From: a virus
Lineage: Duplodnaviria > Caudoviricetes
DNA length: 64,000 nucleotides
Virus record (IMG/VR): IMGVR_UViG_3300031134_000004
Location: 64,001-128,000 of that record
Reading direction: 5' to 3' (one strand)
Part shown: one piece after another, positions 21,394-49,409 of the stretch
Numbering within the stretch: the first letter of the stretch is position 1
Layout: each line of letters opens with the position of its first letter
Notes under the pieces: model-generated
The model's database searches: none
What the model was told of the DNA's origin: nothing
The model's input: only the letters and a program-made list of their open reading frames with translations
Translations under genes and position numbers: made by a program

Positions 21394-21474
21394 GCGCCTT
21401 TAAGTTACGGCTTTTGGCCACCCGGTTTCGATCGGGTGGTTTTTTTTTTTGTGACACACTAGGAGAAAATAACA

Positions 21475-22296
21475 ATGACTAAATTCGAACAACTTGTCCA
21501 AGCCAATCTCATTCCACTTGCGTTTGTCGCAGCTGGGATTTACTTTAGCTACCTTGGGTGGCTGATGTATCGCAAACGTCAACGAGAAAAGAACAAGACG
21601 TGGCGGGAAGTGCCCCAGATCAAGTGGAACAACCAAGGCATGGCGCTCATTACCGATAGTGCAGTAACGACTACGCCATTTACACCTCATCACACCGAAT
21701 TGATCGGTCGCTATTTCCCTGACTATCTGGCAGGCTTTATCGCCAACCTGTCTCCAGGAGAAATCTCCACGATCTTACTCGAAGTACAAACGCACACCAA
21801 CAAACTCGCTGACGAAAAACAGAAAGACATTCTGCGGGCCTGTACGATAGCTGCAGCGCGTTACGGTTTCTTGCTGCCCATTCCCTTGGTTTGCCTTGAT
21901 GCACGCACCCACGCCCTCTACAGCATGCTTAGCAAGGATCTGGAGATGCAAAAGGTATCGACCGACATGCTGGTCAATTCAGGCGGACCTGAACCTGCAC
22001 AAAACTATCTGCTCGTCTTCGCCATTGTCGGCCATATCCTCATGCACTACGCGTCCAAGGGTCCGTATCCGTCGGTGCAGAACTTCCTGAAAACGGTCAA
22101 CCGCAATCTCAAAGGTGCAGCACCTTTGTCTGACGAGAGCACATTGTCCGTAGCGACAGCCTGGGCGGGTTTATCCAGAATGCCACTGCCGCATCGCTAC
22201 CATCGTTACAACGAAATTACCGACGCTGTGTATAACAGCAACCATGTTCACAAAGTCGTCGAGGAAAGCAAACCTCGCTTGACCCTCGTTAAATAA
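21475..22296 (+). CDS. hypothetical membrane-anchored protein
   Basis: aggag SD; N-terminal TM segment followed by basic residues. Confidence 0.75.
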   Translation: MTKFEQLVQANLIPLAFVAAGIYFSYLGWLMYRKRQREKNKTWREVPQIKWNNQGMALITDSAVTTTPFTPHHTELIGRYFPDYLAGFIANLSPGEISTILLEVQTHTNKLADEKQKDILRACTIAAARYGFLLPIPLVCLDARTHALYSMLSKDLEMQKVSTDMLVNSGGPEPAQNYLLVFAIVGHILMHYASKGPYPSVQNFLKTVNRNLKGAAPLSDESTLSVATAWAGLSRMPLPHRYHRYNEITDAVYNSNHVHKVVEESKPRLTLVK

Positions 22297-22305
22297 AGGA
22301 TCATC

Positions 22306-23001
22306 ATGAAACTCATTATGTTTGCAGGTGCAGGTGCAGTCGGTAAGACCAAACTACTCGAAGCGTGCGTAAAGTTGGCTGAGACTCGGCGTATGCGTGT
22401 GGCTGAACACAAGTCCACTACCCGTAAGACGTACGAGCGTCACGGTTATACGCAAGAGAGCGATGCGCTTAGTAACCCAGAGACGAATCGCTTGTTCCAA
22501 CACGAAGTCATGTCGGACAATATCCGTGCACTGGAAGAGACGGTTTGCACAGCAGTCGGTCGTCGTCTGGATGTGGTCTTTGCTGATCGCACACCGCACG
22601 ACTACGCTGCGTACTACTTCACCGTCTTTGCTGACATCCTGGATATTCACACCATCCAGCGCAAGCGCGACATAGCTGATACGGCATTGGCGCGCATGCA
22701 CAATGAATTTGACAAGCGTGTTGAAGTTGTCATCTACATGTTGCCGTTCCCTTGCTACTGGTCGGTTGACACTGATTCGTCCGATGGCTGGCGACGCGAT
22801 ACCACGGGCAAGAACCTGCTCTGGTCAAACTCGGTGGAAGCAGAAGTTGCTAACATCAAGCGTCGTCTTGAACTTGAAGGCTTCGAGCAAAACCACATCA
22901 CGGTTAAGCGTCTGCCACCGTTCTTTGAAAACGGTACGCCAGAAGAACGCGCGATCGGTATTCTCTCGGAAGAATTCCCACTTAAATCTCGTTTTGGATA
23001 A
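22306..23001 (+). CDS. P-loop kinase-like protein (AAA_28/NadR- or dNMP-kinase-like)
   Basis: Walker A GAGAVGKT; hhhhDR motif VVFADRTPHD. Confidence 0.7.
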   Translation: MKLIMFAGAGAVGKTKLLEACVKLAETRRMRVAEHKSTTRKTYERHGYTQESDALSNPETNRLFQHEVMSDNIRALEETVCTAVGRRLDVVFADRTPHDYAAYYFTVFADILDIHTIQRKRDIADTALARMHNEFDKRVEVVIYMLPFPCYWSVDTDSSDGWRRDTTGKNLLWSNSVEAEVANIKRRLELEGFEQNHITVKRLPPFFENGTPEERAIGILSEEFPLKSRFG

Positions 23002-23004
23002 AAC

Positions 23005-23454
23005 ATGAGTAACTTAGTCAAAGAAGCCATGGCGTTTGAATCGGACATGACGGTCAGTCATTTCCTTGTAGAGAACCAAGCCATGGTCTTAACGGTCAAT
23101 GCTCCTTACATGACCAAAGCGCAAGTTGAAGAAGCTGGCTACGAAGAAGGTAACGTCGTCTATCCTGAATGGGTGGTTGACGAATTGCGTTCTGAAGTCG
23201 AGCGCCTGCAAGCCATGATCGAGCCTCACCCGCCGAGTCGCGATTGCGAGTGCCAGCGTTGCCAAGACGATTTCGCTGAGAAAGACAAGACGCCTTCGGA
23301 TGGCGAAATCTACAGCATCGTCAAACCGCCTCCAGCGTGGGACGAGACGAACGCCCAAAAAGCAATCGTCATGGCAATGCACGGTACGCCTGAACAACGT
23401 AAAGAAGCCACGGCGTTTTTCCGTCACCATCTCAACACGAACAAAAAGGACTGA
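23005..23454 (+). CDS. hypothetical protein
   Basis: In-operon, 149 aa, CECQRC motif. Confidence 0.7.
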   Translation: MSNLVKEAMAFESDMTVSHFLVENQAMVLTVNAPYMTKAQVEEAGYEEGNVVYPEWVVDELRSEVERLQAMIEPHPPSRDCECQRCQDDFAEKDKTPSDGEIYSIVKPPPAWDETNAQKAIVMAMHGTPEQRKEATAFFRHHLNTNKKD

Positions 23455-23457
23455 CCA

Positions 23458-23991
23458 ATGTTTGACGCAACCGGCTGGCTTCTTTTTCTCGGCGTTGTGG
23501 GATGGATTTTGTTGTTCTGGTTAATGCGCACTCTTAACGCGCGTGATAAGAAGGAATTGCTAAAACAGAACACAGCTTTTAGCGTTGCCAAAGAACTCGG
23601 TTACGACGGCTCAGAAAAAGACTGGCTCAACGAATTTGTCAATGAGGAAAGAGCGCCTTCTTTCCCCTGCCATGATCCGTTTCATGAGTACTGGTTTGGT
23701 TACCAAGACAACGTGCCTTCGTACGAGAGCGCGGACGGTTTGGATGTGCGGTTGGGAATCCCTTACGCCAATCCTTACGTCCCCATGAGTTACGAATACA
23801 CGTACTACAGTGGTGACGATCGGGTCTCGGGAACTGACAACATGCTTCCTTACGAGAAGATGATGGTGGAAATTAGAGCGGTGCTCAATCCACGTTTTGG
23901 CGACATGAGCGCGTACCGAAAAGCTGTGGCTAAAGAGCGGGTGAATAAACACATGCGTACTCACCGCATGCGTCCTGCTCGCGTTAATTAG
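23458..23991 (+). CDS. hypothetical membrane-anchored protein
   Basis: aagga SD; N-terminal TM segment. Confidence 0.7.
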   Translation: MFDATGWLLFLGVVGWILLFWLMRTLNARDKKELLKQNTAFSVAKELGYDGSEKDWLNEFVNEERAPSFPCHDPFHEYWFGYQDNVPSYESADGLDVRLGIPYANPYVPMSYEYTYYSGDDRVSGTDNMLPYEKMMVEIRAVLNPRFGDMSAYRKAVAKERVNKHMRTHRMRPARVN

Positions 23992-23999
23992 GAGCACGT

Positions 24000-24428
24000 A
24001 TGGAAAACATACCTTGGCTGGTAGGTTTTGTGGTGGCTGCTTTGATCTTGGCCAAAATCTTCAGCGTCTTTCCGTTTCGTCCTAAGCGTTCGAACTTGAC
24101 GTATCGTGAAGTCATGCAAGACGGTTCGGTTAGGGAGATTCCCAATCCACACCCGTACGGTAGCCGAGAAGCGTTCCACGAGCTTCAGCTACAGCGCAAT
24201 ATCGCCATGTATCGACAACAAACGGGGAAGGAACCAAGCGAAGAAGAGCGCTACATCGCGATGATGCATGCAACAGGTTACGTGCAAACAGGATTGACTT
24301 ACCGTGATTACTTACGGGACTTCGGGCCAGCTACTCATACGAGAAGAACCGCTATCGAGCGTGCGCAAAAGCGTAAGCTCAAACCACTGCAACCGACGCG
24401 TCCTCGTCGCTCTGTTGCTCGACCTTAA
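24000..24428 (+). CDS. hypothetical membrane-anchored protein
   Basis: aggag SD; N-terminal TM segment and basic C-terminus. Confidence 0.7.
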   Translation: MENIPWLVGFVVAALILAKIFSVFPFRPKRSNLTYREVMQDGSVREIPNPHPYGSREAFHELQLQRNIAMYRQQTGKEPSEEERYIAMMHATGYVQTGLTYRDYLRDFGPATHTRRTAIERAQKRKLKPLQPTRPRRSVARP

Positions 24429-24439
24429 AGGAGAACAGC

Positions 24440-24547
24440 ATGCGTAAGCGTTATCGTAGTTCGGAGGATGAGTGGCTTGCGGGCTTTATCATCACCGTCG
24501 TGTTCGGTGTCGTTTGCTGGCTCATCTATAAGTTCGTGATCCAATGA
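24440..24547 (+). CDS. small membrane protein, 35 aa
   Basis: aaggag SD; MRKRYRSSEDEWLAGFIITVVFGVVCWLIYKFVIQ; its stop overlaps the NADAR start (ATGA). Confidence 0.6.
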   Translation: MRKRYRSSEDEWLAGFIITVVFGVVCWLIYKFVIQ

Positions 24548-25050
24548 CAGTCGGTGTTGTAGACGACTTCTTCTTGTTCTTCGGTAAGGAAGATCTTTTC
24601 TCTCAATGGAATTGGCGGGGCATTACAGTTAAGGGAGTGTTCTTTAAGACGTGCGAACACTTCATGATGTATTGCAAGGCCAAGCTCTTTAAAGACGATG
24701 AGATTGCCGAAGAAATACTGATAGCATCCAGTCCTAGGGAAGCCAAACGTCTTGGTCGGCTCGTTAAAGGGTTCGACGAAGACGTTTGGGTACAACACCG
24801 CTTAAAGTACGTCACGGCAGCTTGCCTTGCCAAAGCACGCCAATACCCAGAAGTCATGGCGCTGCTTAAATCGACTGGCGCAAAGATCATTGTCGAGGCA
24901 AGTCCTTACGATGGTATTTGGGGTGTGAAACTGGGAGCGAATGATTCACGTATCTTAGACCCAGATGCGTGGCGGGGATTGAATTTGTTGGGTCAAGCGT
25001 GGATGATTGCAAGAACAACACTCTGGTTAGAAGAAAGGAAAGCTGCATGA
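24544..25050 (+). CDS. NADAR (YbiA-like) family protein
   Basis: Motifs LFSQW, CEHFMMYCKAKLFKD, AKRLGRLV, KARQY, IVEASPYDGIWG and GLNLLGQAWM. Confidence 0.9.
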   Translation: MTVGVVDDFFLFFGKEDLFSQWNWRGITVKGVFFKTCEHFMMYCKAKLFKDDEIAEEILIASSPREAKRLGRLVKGFDEDVWVQHRLKYVTAACLAKARQYPEVMALLKSTGAKIIVEASPYDGIWGVKLGANDSRILDPDAWRGLNLLGQAWMIARTTLWLEERKAA

Positions 25051-25187
25051 TTGATAGAATTTTCAATGCGGTTACTAACATGACTGTAGATAATGCGATA
25101 GCCTTTATTCTTGGCATGGGGATTGGTTTCGTATTGATCTACGTTATTCCAGCATTGTGGAAACGTAGGGGGGAAGATGTGGTTTGA
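25047..25187 (+). CDS. small membrane protein, 46 aa
   Basis: ATGA overlap with the NADAR stop; hydrophobic AIAFILGMGIGFVLIYVIPALW. Confidence 0.55.
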   Translation: MIDRIFNAVTNMTVDNAIAFILGMGIGFVLIYVIPALWKRRGEDVV

Positions 25188-25635
25188 TAGTGCAGTGCAA
25201 GGAAAACCCATGCGTGCTTTCGGGTATCGCTGGGAAAGCTGGTGGTATCCGTACTTAACCAAACAGCTACTCGAAGATGGTGATAGTTGGATGGCGCGTG
25301 AGTTGTACGTGTGTGATGACACCACAAGCTGGGAGTCGCCACACATTCAAGGCATGCGTTTGTATCTCATCCACTTTGACATCAAGAACCCTTTGGTGAT
25401 CCTTAATTCTCGCAAGTGTTACGAGTGGGAGTTCGGACACAAAGAAGTCGATGCAGTGCGTGCAAAAGGATACGACGCTATTATCTACACGCCCCATGCA
25501 AAGGTAAAGCCGTCAACGAATCGGCAAACGTTATTGCTCTACCCTGCTCAGCAAGTGCTGGAGATTGAACTACTGCAAGGGGATCACCATTGTGGTTTGC
25601 CACCGGGTGTGGACGTTTGGTCGTGGGGCGACTGA
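25177..25635 (+). CDS. hypothetical protein, possibly a divergent ART-PolyVal-like ADP-ribosyltransferase fold
   Basis: LYLIHFDIKNPL, KGYDAII and LLLYPAQQV resemble the VY.V.L...NPL, GYDGI and VVF.P.QI pattern. Confidence 0.45.
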   Translation: MWFDSAVQGKPMRAFGYRWESWWYPYLTKQLLEDGDSWMARELYVCDDTTSWESPHIQGMRLYLIHFDIKNPLVILNSRKCYEWEFGHKEVDAVRAKGYDAIIYTPHAKVKPSTNRQTLLLYPAQQVLEIELLQGDHHCGLPPGVDVWSWGD

Positions 25636-25666
25636 TTGTCAAAAATAACTGACTAGGGGAAATAGC

Positions 25667-25960
25667 ATGAGTGAAACGAATGCAGTAGCAGTACCTGAAG
25701 TTGTCAAGCTTGAGCCGATTGACTTTAATGACTTGCCAGAACAATGTAAGCCCAGTTTAGCGAGATGGATCGTAACGCAAGAAAAATCCTACTATCCAGT
25801 GGTGATGTTTTTCCGTGAAGAAGTCGAAGCTTACCAGTGGGCGGGGTATTTGTCTTCACAGGTTAATCCGGAAGACAACCACGAACGGGTGCGTGCTATT
25901 ACTGTTGCAGAAATCAAACAACAAGTCGTCATGCCTGGATACGACATTGCCGATGAATAA
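25667..25960 (+). CDS. hypothetical protein
   Basis: gggg SD, 97 aa. Confidence 0.65.
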   Translation: MSETNAVAVPEVVKLEPIDFNDLPEQCKPSLARWIVTQEKSYYPVVMFFREEVEAYQWAGYLSSQVNPEDNHERVRAITVAEIKQQVVMPGYDIADE

Positions 25961-25991
25961 GTAAGCCAACCAGAAAACAAGGAAGAAACAA

Positions 25992-27041
25992 ATGAGTGCA
26001 ACACAAAGCTACCACGATCTTATCAACCGTGTCCGCGCTATGGGTGACGTCATGCCCAACCGCACCGGTGTCGACACTATCAAGACCGTGGGTGAGATGT
26101 TTAAGATCGACCTACGCCAAGGCTTTCCTCTCTTGACCAGCAAGAAGATGGCAGGCAATGGTGCTGTGGCAATTAACGAGACCTTCGGGTTCTTCCGTGG
26201 TTACACGAGCGCTGCAGACTTTCGTCGTCTGGGCGTGAACGTCTGGAACAAGAATGCCAATTCCCATGGCGTCAAACCCAATGCCTGGCTCGACAACCCA
26301 TTCCGTGAAGGTGTGGACCATCTGGGTGCGGTGTACGGTGACCAGTGGCGTAACTGGCCTGGCTACAAGGTGATCAAAGCCTTGCCGAAGGATGCGTCGA
26401 AAGAAGAAGGCGAGCGCTACATGGTAACGGTCGCCATGCTGGAAAAACAAGGCTGGCAGTTTATCGGCACGACATTCGAAGACGAGCGGATCTATTACAA
26501 GTCGCTCGACCAACTCGGCGAATGCGTACGCAAGATCATCGAAACGCCAGAAGACCGCCGCATCATCTTCCACGCATGGAACGTTGCGATGCTCGACCAG
26601 ATGGCGCTGCCACCATGCCACCTGCTGTACCAGTTCTTCCCGAACACGACCCACAAGCGTTTGGACATGGTGATCTACGTGCGCAGCAACGACCTGTGCC
26701 TGGGTACGCCATTTAACATGGTCGGCGCCGCTACTGTGCTTGCTGCCATGGCGCGGGTGACTGGTTACGAAGCCGGTATCGTCTCGTACATGATCGGCGA
26801 TGCGCACGTCTACGCCAACCAACACGAATACCTCGACGAACAAATGTCGAAGGTGCCGTACAAACAACCGTCGTGGAAGTGGCGTGATGTGGTGCCTGGT
26901 GAAGAAACCTTTGGTCCATCCAATCCGAACTGGATCAAGGATGCGATTCGTGCGCTGACGGAATTCGAGGCGCAAGACATCATCATCGAAAACTACGAGT
27001 ACCACGAACTGGTCACGCCCGTTCCACCAATGGTTGTTTGA
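25992..27041 (+). CDS. thyA: thymidylate synthase
   Basis: Motifs RTG, GFPLLTSKK, LGAVYGDQWR, DRRIIFHAWN, ALPPCHLLYQF, VRSNDLCLGTPFN and GDAHVY. Confidence 0.95.
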   Translation: MSATQSYHDLINRVRAMGDVMPNRTGVDTIKTVGEMFKIDLRQGFPLLTSKKMAGNGAVAINETFGFFRGYTSAADFRRLGVNVWNKNANSHGVKPNAWLDNPFREGVDHLGAVYGDQWRNWPGYKVIKALPKDASKEEGERYMVTVAMLEKQGWQFIGTTFEDERIYYKSLDQLGECVRKIIETPEDRRIIFHAWNVAMLDQMALPPCHLLYQFFPNTTHKRLDMVIYVRSNDLCLGTPFNMVGAATVLAAMARVTGYEAGIVSYMIGDAHVYANQHEYLDEQMSKVPYKQPSWKWRDVVPGEETFGPSNPNWIKDAIRALTEFEAQDIIIENYEYHELVTPVPPMVV

Positions 27042-27058
27042 TAGCAAGGGGGAAAGAA

Positions 27059-27781
27059 ATGAAGTATTTGAAGTTGGATGAGATCGCCACGCATCAACAA
27101 GTCGGTATCATCAGTGAGCTTGCTGCTGACGATGTGAATGAACTCGATCAATTGCGTTCACTCATTATCAAGAACGTCCAGTTGCTGGACCATCCTGGTG
27201 TGCGGGTTCTCAATACGTTACTCAGTAGCGTGGTCGACCTTCAGCATGCCAAGTTCGACAAGGACTTGCCTGTCACGCAGGATTGGGTACACAGCCTGAC
27301 GCTCATGCAGCAGTCAGTGCTCTTGACCGCGATCCGTGGACCAGACGGCCGCGCTAAATACGAAGCGCCTAAGATGCTGGTTCGCTGGTATCGCCGGTGC
27401 GTTCTCATCTCCGCGTTCGACCGCGAGACGATCGACAATCCATGGGACGCGCGTGGTGGTAGCTTTACTGGCCCATCAATTCAAGTTGGGATGAACGAGC
27501 AGTACTCTTCGCTCAGTCGTCTCTTAAAGCCGGAAGTCGATGCGTACCTGAAACAACTCGACGCCGTCCCTGTGCACTTCCAGCGACACTTCATGCATGC
27601 GGCTGAAATCCTCGGCTACAAGCATCCGGTGCCAGAGATTCGTGCGTTCTGGCTCGACTTCTACGTGCAACTCGTTGAAGAGATCCACTTGACGCCGGAG
27701 ACGGAAGAAGAGATGGACAAGCGCCTGGGTGACAACCGGGAAGGTTGGCTCGAACGCAGCAGTGATGCTACCAGGAATTAA
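27059..27781 (+). CDS. conserved phage hypothetical protein
   Basis: Start MKYLKL after a gggg SD. QDWVHSLTLMQQSVLLTAIRGPDG, GGSFTGP and HFMHAAEILGYKHP are motifs I recall from other phage hypotheticals. Confidence 0.75.
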   Translation: MKYLKLDEIATHQQVGIISELAADDVNELDQLRSLIIKNVQLLDHPGVRVLNTLLSSVVDLQHAKFDKDLPVTQDWVHSLTLMQQSVLLTAIRGPDGRAKYEAPKMLVRWYRRCVLISAFDRETIDNPWDARGGSFTGPSIQVGMNEQYSSLSRLLKPEVDAYLKQLDAVPVHFQRHFMHAAEILGYKHPVPEIRAFWLDFYVQLVEEIHLTPETEEEMDKRLGDNREGWLERSSDATRN

Positions 27782-48866: not shown

Positions 48867-49409
48867 ATGAACTTAATGAATAACGACCCATTTGAAGAGA
48901 GTTTGGGTGAATTTCTTAATGGCCGTTTGAAAGAGGCTAAGTGGGAACTGGATGATGCGCCAAACACACCAATCACGTACGGTGCTGAAGTGTCGATTCC
49001 TGTTGTCATGCACTACACCAACCTCATGCAAGCTGAGAGCATGATGTTGCTGTTCAAAGAATTCTTCAAAGAGTTCTACGATAAGCTTGAAGTGGCGGCC
49101 ATGGAAATGATGGCAGGTAAAAACTTCACCATTAGCGAGAGCTGGGCGCAAGCGCCAGATCGGATGTCGCAACTCATCTTAACGATGATGACTGATCCGT
49201 TTTACATTCCTTACCTGAACGAACAATATCCAACGCAAGAACAAGCGTTCGGGGAAAAGATCATCTCGGTGTGGGGGCGCGCTGCGATTTACGAAAAACT
49301 GAGCGGCCAGTACGTCATGATGTTCGCAGGTTCTACCAATGCAATGCTTCAATCCAAAGAAGACATCTTCAAGTACAACAACGGTAAGCACTTTACCACG
49401 ATCTATTAA
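48867..49409 (+). CDS. hypothetical protein
   Basis: AAACAAGGAA leader, 180 aa. Confidence 0.75.
   Translation: MNLMNNDPFEESLGEFLNGRLKEAKWELDDAPNTPITYGAEVSIPVVMHYTNLMQAESMMLLFKEFFKEFYDKLEVAAMEMMAGKNFTISESWAQAPDRMSQLILTMMTDPFYIPYLNEQYPTQEQAFGEKIISVWGRAAIYEKLSGQYVMMFAGSTNAMLQSKEDIFKYNNGKHFTTIY

Follow-up and report, generated by a model that had tools for sequence, protein, structure and literature searches.

Phage-encoded ADP-ribosyltransferases (ARTs) and enzymes that erase ADP-ribose are central to work on phage-host conflict, as exemplified by DarTG, AdfN/AdfM, AcrIF11, and Thoeris. The closest described arrangements to the one reported here are YbiA-YarT (PMC11125620) and DarT1-NADAR (PMC11543638), in which a NADAR gene lies on the same strand upstream of or next to a gene for a small ARTD-like ART. 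The DarT1-NADAR pair constitutes DarTG1, and its eraser is specific for N-glycosidic (guanine) ADP-ribose (PMC11543638). DarTG1 is counteracted by phage NADARs from several clades, one of them a Vequintavirinae protein (PMC11825919). Here, we analyze a NADAR gene and a downstream ART-like gene in a 64,000-nucleotide stretch of viral DNA (hereafter the window), i.e., bases 64001-128000 of the 224,654-bp IMG/VR virus record IMGVR_UViG_3300031134_000004, which has an estimated completeness of 84% and stems from a jumbo phage of ~225 kb. A first-pass annotation of the window had proposed that the two genes form an ADP-ribose eraser/writer module. With moderate confidence, we favour a different interpretation, namely that two separate NAD+/ADP-ribose enzymes are encoded next to each other in a long run of genes on one strand and do not represent an obligate writer/eraser pair.

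The locus consists of four open reading frames (ORFs) between positions 24440 and 25635 of the window:

24440-24547, + strand: candidate ORF of 35 amino acids (aa) with one hydrophobic, transmembrane-like helix, the first of the four overlapping genes
24544-25050, + strand: NADAR-domain protein of 168 aa, YbiA (Glu) type (Pfam PF08719, phrog_1017)
25047-25187, + strand: 46-aa ORF with one hydrophobic, transmembrane-like helix followed by WKRRGE, which bridges the NADAR and ART-like genes and overlaps both
25177-25635, + strand: 152-aa single-domain ART-fold protein with seven strands and three helices in the model, overlapping the 46-aa ORF by 11 nt

The four ORFs overlap head to tail at every junction (ATGA, ATGA, and 11 nt). 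An AAGGAG site is located 7 nt 5' of the ATG of the 35-aa ORF, whose stop codon overlaps the NADAR start codon (ATGA), and the ATG of the 46-aa ORF overlaps the NADAR stop codon in the same manner (ATGA). The arrangement previously described as translationally coupled for the NADAR, 46-aa, and 152-aa ORFs is confirmed in that all of them are present on the + strand and overlap, and a fourth overlapping ORF lies upstream.

Searches with the 152-aa protein against Pfam and PHROGs gave no match. Among 1.84 billion representative sequences, an exhaustive phmmer search recovered 47 relatives (cluster representatives at 50% identity) of 117-661 aa at E ≤ 1e-3, and an AlphaFold2 model computed from the resulting 48-sequence domain alignment of the family (alignment A2) reached a mean predicted local distance difference test score (pLDDT) of 90.1 and a predicted template modelling score (pTM) of 0.83. 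Because of these relatives and the quality of the model built on their alignment, we regard the 152-aa ORF as a real gene. Structural comparison of the model against 48,161 PDB chains using VIA-align identified NatT (Z 8.0), MbcT (7.4), and an insecticidal ART (7.2) as best matches, followed by diphtheria toxin (6.7), PARP1 (6.7), and ParT (6.4), and at lower scores by tankyrases, exotoxin A, Rhs ART toxins, AcrIF11, Arr, and pertussis toxin. Of the 50 best-scoring chains, about 45 were ARTs, with matches spanning model residues ~7-140. ARTs also dominated the list of Foldseek matches in the PDB, the best E-value being only 0.019. Searches of the ESM Atlas, based on shape together with language-model features, returned ART-PolyVal, RES, and PARP clusters at template modelling (TM) scores of 0.53-0.61. 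In BFVD, gp096 of Vibrio phage pVa-21 (2.7e-13) and a protein of an Erwinia jumbo phage (RisingSun; 1e-6) ranked first, and were followed by many proteins annotated as 'ART-PolyVal-like domain' and by an N4-like virion RNA polymerase. As no single score is decisive, the case for an ART fold is built on how consistently ARTs recur among the matches from the PDB, the ESM Atlas, and BFVD, from which we consider it very likely that the modelled 152-aa protein is a member of the ART fold. The structure prediction and fold search at 25177-25635 that the first-pass annotation had suggested for its ART-like gene thus returned an ART fold, specifically one that is ART-PolyVal-like.

The affinity to ART-PolyVal is also apparent at the level of sequence profiles. 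Alignment of A2 to 13 domains that pass PF18760 (alignment A3; from Clostridia genomes and one Agitococcus metagenome-assembled genome) using hhalign yielded a probability of 84.9% (E 6.4e-6), or 90.6% in global mode, with all motif blocks in register:

G-Y-[H/R]-W in this family, V-Y-H-G-T in ART-PolyVal
L-Y-V-C-D-D in this family, G-F-Y-F-T in ART-PolyVal
L-Y..IKNP in this family, A-Y-L-N-I-K-N-P in ART-PolyVal
G-Y-D-[ASG]-I-I in this family, Y-D-G-[IV] in ART-PolyVal
R-Q-x-L-L-x-P-x-x-Q-[IV] in this family, x-Y-[IV]-V-F-x-P-x-Q-I-K in ART-PolyVal

ART-PolyVal was described as a member of the Tox-ART-HYD2 clade with the residue pattern H (strand 1) - Y (strand 2) - D (strand 5) (Iyer et al. 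2017, PMC5512222). Two of these three residues are kept in the window protein, i.e., Y44 and D100. The single invariant Asp of A3, which is the Asp of YDG, aligns with D100, and this Asp is present in all 48 family members. The strand-1 His is found in 35 of the 48 relatives, and its place is taken by Arg in the window protein. It is therefore likely, as judged from these profiles, that the 152-aa family is a divergent sister of ART-PolyVal within the HYD2 clade. The strings YPYLT, LYLIHFDIKNPL, KGYDAII, and QTLLLYPAQQV, on which the initial recognition of ART-PolyVal-like motifs was based, all occur in the 152-aa protein. Three of the four proposed motif equivalences (IKNP, GYD, and LL.P..Q[IV]) are reproduced by the profile alignment. 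The equivalence of YPYLT with FYFT had to be abandoned, as hhalign places the YPYLT segment on the F-T-x-F block and LYVCDD (residues 43-48) on GFYFT. PDB sequence searches with the family protein P0002, A2, or A3 gave no meaningful match; a weak alignment of the A3 profile to Helicobacter pylori Cag3 (PDB 6x6s/8ynx; E 0.22), confined to the segment F-T-x-F ... Y-L-x-I-x-N-P, is probably due to chance.

Column counts over the 48 sequences of A2 delineate nine signature positions:

Position 18: H in 35 and R in 10 members; R in the window protein
Position 44: Y in 34 and F in 13 members; Y in the window protein
D47: 47 of 48 members
W52: 48 of 48 members
P72: 48 of 48 members
E83: 47 of 48 members
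D100: 48 of 48 members
R116: 44 of 48 members
Position 117: Q in 44 and E in 4 members; Q in the window protein

R18 is located at the end of the strand formed by residues 12-20, and its column aligns to the His of the ART-PolyVal YHGT motif. The YHGT-type start that had been reported as missing is thus represented by a counterpart, GYRWE (residues 16-20), for which the family consensus is G-Y-H-W. The ten members with Arg at position 18 keep the other signature residues, with the one exception of a Ser at position 83 in P0034, and are scattered over three or more parts of a tree with poor resolution. On the basis of this distribution, position 18 looks like a tolerated His/Arg exchange and not like decay. 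R18 and Q117 were placed relative to solved ARTs by counting inward from both ends of each aligned range and using published residue numbers, a procedure that assumes few gaps near the ends and makes no use of coordinates; in this way, R18 falls on H21 of diphtheria toxin, H440 of exotoxin A, H428 of PARP2, H384 of PARP3, and R27 of MbcT, and Q117 falls within one residue of E148 of diphtheria toxin, E553 of exotoxin A, E558 of PARP2, E514 of PARP3, and E1291 of TNKS1. The classical catalytic Glu after the ADP-ribosylating toxin turn-turn (ARTT) loop is not found in the window protein, which has Q117 preceded by the near-invariant R116. From the range counting and from motif similarity, Q117 probably occupies the site of this Glu, and the family would carry R-Q (rarely R-E) there beside the HYD Asp. 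The earlier remark that a catalytic Glu is missing is correct in that the classical position probably holds a Gln, but this is no defect in comparison with ART-PolyVal, which is of the H-Y-D type and whose Asp is matched by the invariant D100.

The family is new in that it represents an ART-like group missed by both Pfam and PHROGs, which, by its sequences, is distinguished by the conserved R-Q pair and the strand-1 His/Arg switch. Most members stem from uncultured phages, and wherever long contigs or genomes exist these are jumbo phages; contigs of 93, 168, and 277 kb are among the metagenomic contexts. Among 50,697 phage records, four family queries agree on only two isolate carriers, both of them jumbo phages, namely pVa-21 (gp096) and Burkholderia phage FLC9 (gp167). 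Word-indexed protein searches retrieved the copy of a sister phage only. The ART-like domain stands alone in most members, and in some it forms the N-terminal or C-terminal part of proteins of 245-661 aa; it is also N-terminal in pVa-21 gp096, which has 739 aa. In searches against Pfam and PHROGs, the remaining parts of the long fused forms matched no family except phrog_17986 (function unknown), which was found in two of them. A relative on a metagenomic contig (P0046; L037, 1522-2454) has an N-terminal NUDIX hydrolase domain (E 5.6e-16) fused to the ART-like domain and adjoins an endonuclease VII gene on this short contig. In FLC9 (L002, 3570-4645), a gene for an Xre-type helix-turn-helix protein (gp168, 110 aa) is located 9 nt upstream of gp167. 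An arrangement resembling Xre-RES pairs was considered for FLC9 and dismissed, as the helix-turn-helix adjacency is lost in the partly syntenic contig L007. In public gene calling, the window protein begins at M12 (25210; 141 aa). The better start is 25177, as residues 3-11 correspond to a block conserved in the relatives (F-[ED]-x4-G-x-P) and are modelled at pLDDT 95.

The assignment of the upstream gene at 24544-25050 as a NADAR was correct. The protein matches PF08719 at 142.3 bits (cut-off 35.1; E 2.2e-41) and phrog_1017 at E 6e-44, and both catalytic glutamates are kept. Its closest solved relative is the Phytophthora NADAR PDB 8bau (E 4e-17), followed by Escherichia coli YbiA 2b3w (E 9e-8). 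E38 and E118 are matched by E45 and E127 of the 8bau chain, which are E43 and E125 in the numbering of Schuller et al. and represent the two glutamates with a role in the mechanism. E38 and E118 are also invariant among six bacterial relatives (alignment A4). Because the residue on the last strand is a Glu (E118), the NADAR belongs to the YbiA/Glu type and not to the His type of T4 gp30.3. Relatives were detected by tblastn in 707 phage records, with those of Vequintavirinae being the nearest among isolate phages (48% identity). By sequence, the NADAR is an unremarkable representative of a phage counter-defence class that is already known. It is assigned by its sequence to the catalytically intact, Glu-type ADP-ribosyl N-glycohydrolases, and it would most likely act as an orphan AdfN-like antitoxin that strips ADP-ribose from guanine of phage DNA modified by host DarT1-type toxins. 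We thus regard it as probably of the anti-DarT type and as independent of the 152-aa protein. The same phage genome encodes erasers of both the NADAR and the Macro type, the latter being a Macro-domain gene (PF01661, E 5e-12) at 48876-49202 of the record on the - strand, ~15 kb before the first base of the window. A chimallivirus Macro protein, AdfM, is an anti-DarT2 factor (PMC13309987).

Comparison with relatives did not bear out a conserved eraser/writer module. In the closest relative (P0005), a sister phage, the ART-like gene is 55% identical and lies in a syntenic stretch with flanking genes that are 41-66% identical. No NADAR is encoded in the 12.5 kb of this locus, and a 74-aa transmembrane protein is encoded directly upstream of the ART-like gene instead. 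The 46-aa peptide of the window and this 74-aa protein occupy the same position and show a visual resemblance (transmembrane helix, aromatic residue, [KR]3-G-E), yet BLASTP gave no alignment between them, and homology was not accepted. Searches of the flanks in nine other family contexts revealed no NADAR beside the ART-like gene, and none was detectable in the context loci L006-L010 and L036-L040. The complete genome of pVa-21 lacks a NADAR, and that of FLC9 encodes one at a distance of 36 kb from the ART-like gene. Co-occurrence, the check that had been proposed for the module, is therefore lacking in every sufficiently diverged relative examined. The arrangement is retained in a strain of ~98% identity from a separate biofilm study, in which contigs bridge 22000-25134 and 24880-25427, but a strain this similar does not qualify as independent evidence of conservation. 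Complex prediction for the NADAR and the ART-like protein scored 0.22 as compared with a mark of 0.32, a result that argues in neither direction with respect to binding. Tight coupling of the NADAR and ART-like genes is specific to this phage lineage, and it is unlikely that the ART-like protein is functionally coupled to the neighbouring NADAR. An NAD/ADP-ribose theme recurs among the relatives, in the form of the NUDIX fusion and of a weak cpYpsA/SLOG neighbour of one family member; the NUDIX fusion is one of the points left in favour of a pairing.

Several observations weigh against our interpretation, and those concerning the 152-aa protein are addressed first. No single PDB match is statistically strong, given the Foldseek E-values and given that Z-scores around 7-8 are common and values of 8 or less rank as 'middling' in VIA-align. 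The window protein also misses the Pfam ART-PolyVal model PF18760 (gathering threshold 31.2 bits), even at E ≤ 10 in a six-frame genome search, and only two of the 48 family members touch this model, weakly (best E 0.011). With Arg in place of the strand-1 His and Gln at the classical Glu site, transferase activity is not assured, and E83, D100, and Q117 are only predicted to line the NAD+ cleft. The same two substitutions, the Gln being shared by 44 of the 48 members, would be expected of a non-catalytic ART fold acting as a sponge or decoy for NAD+, for ADP-ribose derivatives, or for a host ART/NADase toxin; TASOR is among the fold matches, and pseudo-PARP domains exist. We nevertheless consider such a decoy, which had been offered as an alternative in the first-pass annotation, distinctly unlikely. 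The nine signature positions are near-invariant in a very divergent family, and the near-invariance of the charged residues D47, E83, D100, and R116 across ~30%-identical sequences is typical of an active site. A decayed decoy is further argued against because the Arg-18 members keep nearly all other signature residues. ART-PolyVal itself has no conserved Glu, many active mono-ARTs lack it as well (H-Y-I/L PARPs), and Arg is the normal strand-1 NAD-binding residue of R-S-E ARTs and RES toxins. An Asp-versus-Glu question has been raised for the HYD1 clade by the authors of the YarT study (PMC11125620). It is also conceivable that the 152-aa protein degrades NAD+ in the manner of RES/MbcT/NatT-like enzymes, as an NADase or NAD+ phosphorylase, and thereby reshapes host NAD+ pools or destroys NAD+-derived immune signals. 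The top two solved matches, NatT and MbcT, are RES-type toxins, RES clusters of the ESM Atlas were matched at TM scores of 0.60-0.67, R18 coincides with MbcT R27 in the end-anchored counting, and in one relative the domain is joined to NUDIX, which acts on soluble ADP-ribose. However, the Z-scores of RES toxins, diphtheria toxin, and PARPs differ by no more than ~1.5 units, so that their ranking is not discriminating, and the profile affinity is to ART-PolyVal (hhalign 85-91%), whereas the RES model PF08808 was never matched. An NAD+-degrading enzyme of this kind is thus very improbable. On balance, the 152-aa protein has a somewhat better than even chance of being catalytically active on NAD+. 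It would represent a minimal ART domain in which the strand-1 position for NAD binding, the aromatic residue of strand 2, and the Asp of the family are retained, and it may bind NAD+ and transfer, or less likely hydrolyse, ADP-ribose on a host target during infection.

With regard to pairing, the four-gene overlap with ATGA on both sides of the NADAR matches precisely the layout expected of a functional pair, and the toxin-antitoxin pair YbiA-YarT, with the NADAR upstream and the small ART downstream, is experimentally established in myxobacteria (PMC11125620). In addition, most context loci are short, and the contigs behind L003 and L007 were searched in their flanks only. A genuine phage writer/eraser or toxin-antitoxin-like pair, by analogy to such systems, would have the ART mark a base or another N-linked target and the NADAR limit, time, or reverse this mark and thereby protect phage molecules. 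This proposal accounts for the overlaps at every junction of the gene string and for their retention in the ~98%-identical strain, and it can refer to the precedent of a Glu-type NADAR that serves as antitoxin upstream of a small H-Y-[EDQ] ART toxin (PMC11125620), the window NADAR being of the Glu type as well. The near-identical strain, however, offers no independent test of conservation, the pairing is absent from all nine sufficiently diverged contexts, and the syntenic comparison with the sister phage suggests that the NADAR was inserted in the lineage of the window phage. Moreover, pVa-21 has the ART-like domain without any NADAR, so the domain is evidently tolerated without this eraser. 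We therefore consider a genuine pair doubtful. A more specific variant holds that the lineage-specific recruitment of a Glu-type NADAR beside an ART-PolyVal-like enzyme created a phage unit for reversible ADP-ribosylation, a viral counterpart of YbiA-YarT. In this speculative scheme, to which we attach little credence, the ART would write an N-glycosidic mark (e.g., on guanine of host nucleic acid), the NADAR would keep phage molecules clean, the membrane peptides would possibly position the enzymes, and the R-Q pair would be a new catalytic variant of the ART superfamily. Our preferred interpretation of two separate enzymes instead suggests that the NADAR and ART-like genes are accessory genes with a shared biochemical theme that came to lie together.

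The four ORFs are embedded in a longer string of genes, of which the following elements were identified in addition:

21416-21441: strong terminator-like hairpin
22306-23001: thymidylate-kinase-like P-loop protein in the same string (Pfam/PHROG search)
25992-27041: thymidylate synthase in the same string (Pfam/PHROG search)

No further terminator-like site was found on the + strand between 21441 and 28000, and because the hairpin at 21416-21441 is the only one up to 28000, we place the four ORFs inside a long same-strand string. The thymidylate synthase is long (349 aa as compared with 266 model positions) and shares 29% identity with the ThyA at the equivalent position of the sister phage, in which flanking genes are 41-66% identical; the ThyA gene may have been replaced in one of the two lineages, as judged from these identities. 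Consecutive ORFs at 21475-25187 (177, 142, 35, and 46 aa, and probably 273 aa) start with or equal one hydrophobic helix, and the sister phage encodes transmembrane-anchored proteins at positions matching these membrane-type ORFs. In the ~98%-identical strain of the biofilm metagenome, 197 bases at 25777-25975 are swapped for 181 unrelated bases, which changes the C-terminal part of a 97-aa ORF (25667-25960) just 3' of the ART-like gene. A megablast search of 23000-27100 against phages gave no match.

The present analysis adds a compact ART-fold family with at least 47 clusters at 50% identity and only two isolate carriers among the phage records searched. As a natural operon of an ART-like gene and an intact NADAR, the window locus provides a test case for the target of this family and for the action of NADARs on marks made by phages.

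Compared with known systems, the 152-aa protein is closest to ART-PolyVal, with which it shares the fold and the order of motif blocks. In some relatives (pVa-21 gp096, P0006, P0020, and P0029), the domain is N-terminal in proteins of 645-739 aa, whose remaining parts match no family. In contrast, ART-PolyVal lacks the invariant set D47, W52, E83, and R116-Q117 of this family, has a much longer link between IKNP and the Asp strand, and carries a strand-1 His where the window protein has Arg. ART-PolyVal is furthermore part of virion polyvalent proteins of phages and conjugative elements, whereas the window protein is a stand-alone protein of 152 aa encoded in a nucleotide-metabolism string. 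Other compact ARTs encoded by phages, such as AcrIF11 (PDB 6kyf) and T4 Alt, ModA, and ModB, modify host proteins. AcrIF11 is among the fold matches of the window protein (Z 4.6), at a weaker score than RES, diphtheria toxin, and PARP entries and with no sequence relation seen, and T4 Alt/Mod belong to the R-S-E clade with a true Glu, unlike the window protein.

The window NADAR resembles the AdfN proteins (T4 gp30.3, AdfN-Bas32, and AdfN-Bas60; PMC11825919) in being a stand-alone protein without the N-terminal extension of DarG1. AdfN-Bas60 stems from Vequintavirinae, the subfamily that provides the nearest isolate matches of the window NADAR, a likeness at the level of the subfamily. AdfN of the T4 type has a His at the last-strand position at which the window NADAR has Glu (E118).

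As a gene pair, the locus shares with operons of the YbiA-YarT/DarTG1 type the adjacency, co-orientation, and predicted co-transcription of NADAR and ART genes, as its ORFs overlap and no terminator-like site lies between them. It differs from them by the intervening 46-aa transmembrane ORF and by a pairing that is not conserved among relatives of the ART-like gene. The ART components also differ in clade: YarT belongs to a HYD1/Rhs-toxin-like clade with a conserved Glu and DarT to the BC4486 family, whereas the window protein is HYD2/ART-PolyVal-like with a Gln at this position, its separation from YarT being drawn from the published description of the latter. Finally, YbiA-YarT and DarTG1 are encoded on bacterial chromosomes, whereas the NADAR and ART-like genes of the window are carried by a lytic-type jumbo phage.

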